From Escherichia phage vB_EcoP_P64441, in the sequence record PQ847473.1: a stretch of 42,960 nucleotides of DNA; one strand, written 5' to 3'. Shown here in pieces: positions 1,418 through 1,482 of the stretch. The number at the start of each line of letters is the position of its first letter. Position 1 is the stretch's first letter. Both the position numbers and the translations under genes were made by a program. Under the pieces are notes generated by a model. It did no database searches and was not told the DNA's origin. It was given only the letters and a program-made list of their open reading frames with translations.

Positions 1418-1482
1418 ATAATAGAGCAGGGATACTGGAGGTGTATCCCGGCGCTGGAAGGGTTTTATTATATCATGGATTT
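1418..1482. repeat. Hairpin (GGGATAC-7 nt-GTATCCC) plus copy A of a conserved ~45-bp element shared with 21112..21160 in inverted orientation
   Basis: Direct reading: 'aggtgtatcccggcgctggaagggttttattatatcatgga' here matches the reverse complement of 21112-21160 with few mismatches. It lies in the intergenic gap between the gp15-like and gp16-like genes. Confidence 0.5.

Follow-up and report, generated by a model that had tools for sequence, protein, structure and literature searches.

The strong early promoters of T7 and T5 include sigma-70 promoters of the extended -10 type with an A/T-rich tract upstream. T7 is also said, from the sequence analysis of Dunn and Studier, to carry minor E. coli promoters, namely B, C, E and the leftward A0/D; to our knowledge, these are weak, mutually unrelated and not known to be conserved as a pair. 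A strong intrinsic terminator, TE, separates the host- from the phage-transcribed region of T7. In the temperate phages lambda and P22, short cis-antisense RNAs that have their own terminators are made against small genes, OOP against cII and sar against ant. Among the phiKMV-like phages, the antisense, phage-specific promoter P001 of LUZ19 is conserved in 15 other Phikmvvirus species, and its proposed purpose is to keep transcripts from entering the wrong region (PMC10914365). Here we describe an element of about 78 nt that occurs in two inverted copies in the DNA of Escherichia phage vB_EcoP_P64441 (PQ847473.1; 42,960 nt, the whole of which we call the window). Copy A lies at site A, between the gp15-like and gp16-like genes, and copy B at site B, between an open reading frame (ORF) of 62 amino acids and a pentapeptide-repeat gene. 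We consider it probable that the element is a promoter cassette for the host RNA polymerase and that both of its copies are genuine sigma-70 extended -10 promoters.

On the minus strand, copy A reads TTGACG, 17 nt and TGATATAAT, i.e., TTGACG-17-TGaTATAAT; on the plus strand, copy B reads TGGACA, again 17 nt, and the same TGATATAAT, i.e., TGGACA-17-TGaTATAAT (positions in Table 1). At both sites, a perfect TATAAT follows the TG of an extended -10 after one intervening base, and a hexamer related to TTGACA stands 17 bp away as the -35. The perfect TATAAT recurs in all of the 16 distinct copies that we compared, 5 of copy A and 11 of copy B. In consensus scans, copies A and B were the two top sigma-70 matches in the window, with 11 of the 12 hexamer positions, and among the matches at that level only these two also have the TG. 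Two sites in the window had at least 11/12 positions plus TGn; in 200 simulated genomes of matched composition the mean was 0.045, and no genome had two. Both sites also have an A/T-rich tract upstream of the -35, with ATGTAAA common to the two. The 78-nt similarity spans about -56 to +22 of the predicted promoter, roughly the footprint of RNA polymerase. We infer that E. coli RNA polymerase would initiate transcription at both sites, close to the starts that the spacing predicts.

The repeat had been noticed in an earlier note on this DNA, which described a conserved element of roughly 45 bp in inverted orientation at two distant sites. The two inverted sites are real: an exact 22-mer, GGAAGGGTTTTATTATATCATG, is found at 1456-1477 (plus strand) and 21122-21143 (minus strand), has no match elsewhere in the window at up to three mismatches, and was matched in none of 100 shuffles. 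The conservation also stood, and it was the length that needed correction, since the arms, 1439-1516 (plus strand) and 21083-21160 (minus strand), extend over about 78 nt. They are 77% identical as complements and form the longest inverted repeat in the window, with exactly two copies. An adjacent segment, GGTGTA(T/G)CCC, is present at both sites as described, a hairpin with a 7-bp stem (GGGATAC at 1429-1435, GTATCCC at 1443-1449) does lie beside site A, and the gene context assigned to the two sites was correct. The argument that inverted copies make a promoter unlikely did not hold. The strand that had been quoted is the one opposite to the promoter, and the less informative of the two; on the other strand, both copies are near-consensus sigma-70 extended -10 promoters whose conservation in the 16 copies is of the promoter type. 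One of these promoters is sense, in front of gp16, and the other is antisense, which explains the inversion. A protein-binding site had been suggested as well, and that proposal survives insofar as each copy resembles a site for binding RNA polymerase.

The window belongs to a T7-like coliphage of the Cepavirus type (phiKMV/KP34-type). Its closest cultured relative, Escherichia phage vB_EcoP_PAS7 (Autographiviridae, Slopekvirinae), shows 77% identity over 81% of the first 12 kb; the new genus Cepavirus has this phage as its type (PMC11522302, PMC12451628). Both copies were found in PAS7, in the wastewater assemblies ECO104 4-5-2 and S.Kent 1-2-1 and in one 43-kb IMG/VR contig, and single copies in three partial contigs. 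Retrieval of homologues of the 62-amino-acid ORF (26 found) added six contexts of site B, and the element was present in all six with the same invariant promoter features. Both copies are retained in the close relatives, where their absence would have told against the element. As an aside on these records, OR847408, OR847472, OR848779 and OR849530 ('Listeria phage LM ...') and OR850875 ('Salmonella phage S.Kent 1-2-1') are fragments or genomes nearly identical to E. coli phage ECO104 4-5-2; they come from wastewater enrichments (UNVERIFIED_ORG), and their host labels are unlikely to be right.

Across the 16 copies, TATAAT, the TG and the 17-nt spacing are invariant, whereas A, C and T all occur as the n of TGn. 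The -35 occurs as TTGACG, TTGACA, TGGACA, TGTACA, TTTACA or TTGATA, all of them within two mismatches of TTGACA. We calculated identities from the first ten copies (5 A, 5 B). Among B copies, the -10 was 100% and the -35 80% identical, but the upstream tract only 66% and the spacer 59%; for the spacer the overall range was 53-59%, as against 84% (A with B) and 93% (B with B) for the region from -6 to +22. This distribution reads as the signature of a promoter under selection and not as that of a uniformly conserved repeat. In the comparison with ECO104 4-5-2, the best 80-nt window of the whole genome was 1444-1523, with 98.8% identity (genome mean, 76%), and the core of copy B was 93-95% identical between flanks of 0-88%. 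Both copies, then, appear to be under purifying selection.

The same alignments bear on the idea that the element is a functionless duplicated remnant or recombination linker, kept alike by gene conversion and marking the junctions of modules. Exchange between the copies has indeed taken place: the B copy of the 43-kb contig (L008/L064) has A-type sequence downstream of the -10, and in another B copy (L060) the spacer is of the A type too. Moreover, the alignment to ECO104 breaks off beside both copies, and there are indels, with the pentapeptide gene next to copy B and, in L025, an insertion downstream of copy A. Yet across genomes that are only 76-80% identical the element is conserved far above the flanking coding sequence, this conservation is position-specific and follows the promoter pattern, and reciprocal recombination between the inverted copies would flip 19.6 kb that include the polymerase and head genes. 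A mere remnant seems to us very unlikely, and the recombination role proposed before can be kept only as a by-product, seen in the gene conversion between the copies and in the mosaic junctions that adjoin them.

The two copies appear to occur together and to be confined to one clade, in 5 of its 5 complete genomes, while the sampled loci of sister clades are without the copy that they cover. In a sister clade whose gp16 N-terminus is 60-63% identical, the gp15-gp16 spacer has no promoter element, but a GC hairpin, GAGGCCCTTCGGGGCCTC, followed by a homologous leader; this suggests that the position of the hairpin is old and that the promoter cassette was added to it. Relatives with an about 73% identical phosphoesterase, perhaps other contigs than those of the gp16 sister clade, have neither the 62-amino-acid ORF nor copy B. 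Copy B adjoins the 3' end of the 62-amino-acid ORF in all 11 distinct B copies and in every related genome or contig examined that covers the site. The pentapeptide gene on its other side is variable, being absent from ECO104, S.Kent and several other genomes, in which copy B abuts the equivalent of 20404-20489. Exact-pattern scans of IMG/VR, metagenome contigs and GTDB genomes returned only the same small phage clade and two unrelated chance matches, and a relaxed pattern of the 16-base core returned 22 further loci, all unrelated by their flanks and taken as chance matches. A search with gp16 for further A-site variants gave, among the matches listed, only relatives of 44-48% identity. We rejected a host origin of the element, as it has no similarity among 5,426 complete E. 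coli genomes.

The 28 nt past the -10 are strongly conserved, with the consensus CCCTTCCnnCGCnGGGnTACAC (AAAACCCTTCC nn CGC n GGG n TACAC). Variation in them is limited to four or five fixed positions, and in the window the motif is found only at the two promoters. Since this conservation exceeds the needs of a plain promoter, we regard the region as a further signal superimposed on the promoter, for which an operator, a promoter-escape determinant, a 5' RNA module with a leader function and a weak terminator on the other strand are candidates. Possibly, the 28 nt are the essential part of the element: as a 5' leader RNA module, or as the operator of a DNA-binding protein from phage or host, they would co-regulate both promoters and make of them a single regulated system instead of two constitutive promoters that are independent of each other; such a role is complementary to the promoter reading and does not exclude it. 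The high identity from -6 to +22 relative to the spacers, the few fixed variable positions, the confinement to these two promoters and the co-occurrence of the copies in the clade are all consistent with this. The stretch from +1 to +22 is, in addition, the classical position of an operator, as in lac O1. However, dyad symmetry is not clear (by inspection, 6/8 positions in the B-type and 4/8 in the A-type sequence), site B transcripts have no conserved secondary structure (in copy B the region gives no fold, with -3.7 kcal/mol or weaker), and Rfam 15 gave no match, whether the whole window was scanned at the gathering threshold or the surroundings of the two sites at E <= 1. No protein emerged as a candidate for binding the region, and gene conversion can inflate the similarity of A to B. 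Co-regulation through the 28 nt is a possibility that we hold to be rather unlikely. Two other candidates for the transcribed region were discarded: an antitermination leader of the nut/put type, as no conserved hairpin is common to both promoters and the hairpin at site A uses site-specific sequence, and a sigma-dependent pause element or boxA-like sequence, for which inspection gave partial matches only, not conserved across the copies.

The opposite strand of the core could instead carry a 3'-end signal, an intrinsic terminator or pause site made of a weak hairpin followed by GGGTTTTATTATA, to which the promoter would be secondary. At site B, such a signal would end the early unit of the 62-amino-acid ORF, like the early terminator of T7, and at site A it would stop antisense transcripts. 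A terminator scan does flag AGCCCTGCGTAGGAAGGGTT + TTATTATATC on the minus strand at site B, and the position is fitting, directly after a stop codon and at the end of the host-transcribed region. In one B variant (L062), a C-to-U change in the stem keeps a G-U pair on this strand only; it is the one informative change in the stem among the 11 B copies. A terminator would also account for the conservation of the 28 nt beside the -10. Against this, the stem has 6 bp, one of them G-U, around an 8-nt loop; terminator-like sites in the region number 10 vs 13.4 expected from shuffles; A-type copies and the A-like B copy (L064) lose the stem; and the intergenic RNA of site B is no more stable than its shuffles (z = +0.39). 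Antisense transcription is not expected at site A, and the invariant TG, TATAAT and -35 and the fixed 17-nt spacing would be left unexplained. We think it improbable that termination is the primary function of the core. The bidirectional terminator proposed in the earlier note is likewise weak, as the marginal hairpin and T-run belong to the B-type sequence only and A-type copies are without them. Small ORFs on the same strand (MDFMIRQTLSKYLHY) were considered and rejected, their start codon being lost in PAS7 and in most B copies.

Several points speak against two host promoters and temper our reading. The sequence that follows TATAAT is AAAACCCTTCC, with C, C, T and T at positions 6-9, so that the predicted start window, 6-9 nt past the -10, is all pyrimidine (CCCTT), which is unusual for E. 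coli promoters; pyrimidine starts do occur there, but in a minority. Conservation of the 28-nt region exceeds that of the spacer and is close to that of the -35. Copy A hardly varies anywhere, even in its spacer, suggesting that it is under extra constraints, for example from RNA hairpins, and part of the similarity between A and B is kept by gene conversion and not by selection. The PAS7 paper contains no promoter analysis. Finally, there is no obvious necessity for a strong host promoter within the late region of a phage that has its own polymerase.

Table 1. Positions of the two element copies, their predicted promoter parts and the neighbouring features in the window
Feature	Position	Strand	Basis or context
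Element copy A	1439..1516	-	Inverted-repeat arm; gp15-gp16 intergenic
Copy A -35, TTGACG	1490..1495	-	11/12 promoter match; invariant in 5 distinct A copies
Copy A extended -10, TGaTATAAT	1467..1475	-	Promoter scan; TG + TATAAT invariant in 16 copies
Copy A A/T-rich upstream tract, UP-element-like by sequence	1496..1516	-	Begins right after the gp15 stop codon
Copy A discriminator and conserved initially transcribed region, AAAACCCTTCCAGCGCCGGGATACACCT	1439..1466	-	Predicted start ~1460, from spacing
Element copy B	21083..21160	+	Inverted-repeat arm; between 62-amino-acid ORF and pentapeptide-repeat gene 2; antisense to genes
Copy B -35, TGGACA	21104..21109	+	Promoter scan
Copy B extended -10, TGaTATAAT	21124..21132	+	Promoter scan
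Copy B discriminator and conserved initially transcribed region, AAAACCCTTCCTACGCAGGGCTACACCT	21133..21160	+	Predicted start ~21139
Hairpin at site A only, GGGAUAC/GUAUCCC	1429..1449	-	5' arm is the end of the shared element; in predicted gp16 leader
Hairpin at site A only, spanning promoter core in read-through RNA	1458..1501	-	Minimum-free-energy and centroid structures
Sense early sigma-70 promoter, TTGACA-16-TAGAAT, no TGn	21580..21607	-	Converges on copy B across 62-amino-acid ORF, ~470 bp
Candidate phage-polymerase promoter, ATAGGTATAGCA	20424..20435	-	Before phosphoesterase gene, just inside copy B; inferred
Candidate phage-polymerase promoter, ACAGGTATCTCA	12223..12234	-	Right after phage RNA polymerase gene
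gp15-like gene	1516-4212	-	Stop codon 1516-1518
gp16-like gene	Start 1385, wraps round window end	-	Beside site A
Pentapeptide-repeat gene 2	20490-21071	-	Pfam PF00805, E = 4e-38
62-amino-acid acidic ORF	21159-21347; stop codon 21159-21161	-	phrog_6862
Post-capsid terminator	7734-7750		gp16 and distal late genes lie beyond it

Positions 1-127 of the window are an exact copy of 42834-42960, and this terminal overlap of 127 nt indicates a circular assembly of about 42,833 bp. The circularised assembly splits gp16 across the window ends, and the ORF list accordingly holds only its distal 818 amino acids (40448-42904); the physical ends of the genome lie within a non-coding stretch at 31.5-32.1 kb. 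Nearly all long ORFs are on the minus strand, in an order like that of phiKMV and KP34: early genes, helicase, split DNA polymerase, phosphoesterase, RNA polymerase (12250-14700) and portal, scaffold and capsid, followed by tail tube, gp14, gp15, gp16, tail fibre, terminase, lysis genes and tailspike. No tRNA or tmRNA was found in the window. For the 62-amino-acid ORF, phrog_6862 was the only match, with none in Pfam, and a close-relative scan of IMG/VR gave nothing. Among the neighbours of the copies, the C-terminal part of gp15 (1540-1700), beside copy A, has no detectable DNA similarity to ECO104 4-5-2 (L019), and the adjacent element is 100% identical; the break is a mosaic junction inside the gene of an internal virion protein. 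Two pentapeptide-repeat genes, at 20603-21067 and 27108-27700, consist of DNA with a 15-nt period, over 37 registers. Proteins with pentapeptide repeats often mimic DNA. The gene at 20490-21071 clearly lies on the gene strand; in PAS7, at 10872-11375, it is the opposite strand that is annotated, as 'modular polyketide synthase', which is probably a misannotation, the 15-nt repeat being open on both strands.

Copy A points with the genes, into gp16, and the predicted leader is about 75 nt long up to the gp16 start codon. The intergenic RNA of site A folds in the sense direction into two hairpins (z = -4.08, with 0/200 shuffles as stable). The hairpin in the gp16 leader, about 11 nt from the predicted start, reads GGGGTAC/GTACCCC in PAS7 and ECO104, a compensatory change from A-U to G-C. 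The hairpin that spans the promoter core has an outer stem of AAGGGUUU/AAACCCUU and an inner stem of AUCAUG/CAUGAU; the single substitution among A copies, in PAS7, turns a U-A into a U-G pair, and the A copies vary too little to say more.

Copy B points against the genes, and its predicted start is 20 nt beyond the stop codon of the 62-amino-acid ORF. No terminator-like site was found on the plus strand in the ~470 nt between 21139 and 21620, across which copy B and the nearest sense early promoter converge. The three sense early promoters, with their -35 at 30459, 28918 and 21607, have a 16-nt spacer and TATAGT or TAGAAT, and are without the TG; by these features they form a different class from the element. 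Downstream of each comes a conserved leader, some 65-105 nt long (21442-21547, 28779-28884 and 30320-30425, minus strand), and the same leader is found in PAS7 (L018) near 1125 and 10433. These leaders form three predicted hairpins with invariant loops (GGGUAGAUA; GGAUAAUUCA), with compensatory double changes in 9 of the 15 predicted pairs from only 5 sequences, and have no Rfam match. They look like an undescribed structured RNA, perhaps a polymerase-modifying leader of the put/nut kind or a processing site, and may be more novel than the repeated element itself.

The phage polymerase seems to have sites of another kind. On the sense strand, the motif A.AGGTAT..CA occurs only twice, at 20435 and 12234, with no third copy in the window. 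PAS7 carries GTATSACTATAAGATA, which is T7/SP6-like (GTAT(C/G)ACTATAAGATA), at the same two positions (PAS7 11659 and 19225). In KP34 and LUZ19, phage promoters were mapped experimentally directly after the polymerase gene (PMC6834552, PMC10914365), and from this position we take the A.AGGTAT..CA sites as putative promoters of the phage polymerase. As these candidates have another motif, the element is presumably not a promoter of the phage type; its copies, rather, bracket the phage-promoter block. If the element instead served the single-subunit RNA polymerase of the phage itself, with an antisense copy like that of LUZ19, there would be precedents, in that phiKMV-like phages have few phage promoters, one of them antisense in LUZ19 and its relatives (PMC10914365), and that the KP34 polymerase recognises two unrelated promoter classes (PMC6834552). 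But there is no copy of the element after the polymerase gene and no third copy anywhere in the window, and the strong KP34 motif is absent, the one intragenic match with three mismatches being at chance level. The recurrent motif at both expected positions is a different one, in the window and in PAS7 alike, and conservation within the element falls exactly on the bases of a sigma-70 promoter. We hold recognition by the phage polymerase to be extremely improbable.

Two further observations concern these candidate sites. Their motif differs between the window and PAS7, which suggests co-divergence of promoter and polymerase within one genus. Just upstream of the site before the phosphoesterase gene, in the intergenic region 20404-20489, a hairpin, CCCTTGAG-tatgaaa-CTTGAGGG, lies at about 20440-20465 (minus strand). 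Relatives have CCAGTAAG/CTTGCTGG, CCAGTGAG/CTTGCTGG and the like, with compensatory changes and G-U pairs that are valid only on the sense RNA, and this covarying hairpin may be where the RNA is processed, or else the true early terminator.

If the two copies are host promoters, their orientation suggests different roles for them. Copy A would restart transcription, and its transcript would run through gp16 and the distal late genes for tail fibre, terminase and lysis. This distal late region lies beyond the post-capsid terminator and has no recognisable promoter for the phage polymerase, and no other strong host promoter in the sense direction turned up in scans between copy B and copy A. Copy B would give an antisense RNA into the 62-amino-acid ORF, its predicted target, and would bring polymerases head-on against each other where the host-transcribed early region ends, just before the first candidate promoter of the phage polymerase.

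Possibly, the copies also act together. Both point outward from a block, phosphoesterase to gp15, that contains the two candidate promoters of the phage-polymerase type, and it is conceivable, if doubtful, that they form one boundary system of outward host promoters around this block, with the 28 nt as a control module (an operator or a polymerase-retaining signal). Copy B would then be a collision or occupancy barrier in place of an early terminator, keeping the slow host polymerase out of the phage-polymerase block, and copy A would return the distal late genes to the host polymerase. In such a system, both copies, as members of the extended -10 class, could remain in use once a phage factor has silenced the early promoters that depend on their -35; extended -10 promoters remain active under AsiA of T4. 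Alternatively, outward host promoters might prime DNA replication. Promoter-dependent origins exist in T7 and T4, and the copies have symmetrical places on the map, about 25% and 71% along it, firing toward the genome ends. But GC skew has no inflection at either site and lends no support to the replication role considered before. Transcripts with such a C-rich start are disfavoured as partners in stable RNA-DNA hybrids, no unwinding element adjoins the copies apart from the upstream A/T tract, and priming outward only would leave the central block unreplicated. We view origins of this kind as highly improbable.

If the promoters are active, Cepavirus-like coliphages use the host RNA polymerase in two unexpected places, before the gene of a DNA-ejection protein deep in the late region and backwards at the early/middle boundary. 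This would modify the T7-style picture of host polymerase early and phage polymerase afterwards, would add a host-type case to the antisense promoters mapped in phiKMV-like phages, and would make the element a compact, strong and portable E. coli promoter. If they are inactive in vivo, the element is merely a conserved curiosity. The Cepavirus-like group was named recently and is of interest against Shiga-toxin E. coli; the element matters for its annotation and for phage engineering, because cargo placed at either intergenic site would disturb a conserved signal.

Compared with the known systems, the copies share with the T7 and T5 early promoters a -35 like TTGACA, a 17-bp spacer, TGnTATAAT and an A/T-rich upstream tract, and have their parts conserved in relatives. 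They differ in that they are not at the early end, one being in the late cluster and the other antisense, in their conserved 28-nt transcribed region and in their all-pyrimidine start window, and the phage's own early promoters are of another class. The minor promoters of T7 are likewise of the host type, outside the main early cluster and, in one case, against the direction of the genes, but the two copies are paralogous, near-consensus and conserved together across a clade. Like P001, copy B would be a promoter that lies on the non-coding strand, is conserved among phiKMV-like phages and has its sequence in common with a sense promoter of the genome; whereas P001 is for the phage polymerase and at the left end, copy B is of the host type and at the early/middle boundary. 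As with OOP and sar, copy B looks like a constitutive sigma-70 promoter that stands just past the 3' end of a small early gene, points back into it and is convergent with the promoter of that gene, but it has no terminator-like site within 470 nt and belongs to a virulent T7-like phage. Like TE, copy B stands at the end of the host-transcribed region, before the first candidate promoter of the phage type; in contrast to TE, its hairpin is marginal at best, and it would act by convergent transcription or polymerase occupancy. The out-of-place host promoters ascribed to T7, taken together with the antisense promoters of phiKMV-like phages (PMC10914365), mean that the element is of a kind already known. 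What is unusual, as far as the sequences allow us to judge, is that the two copies are paralogous, near-consensus and conserved together, have a conserved transcribed region in common and enclose the phage-polymerase block between them.

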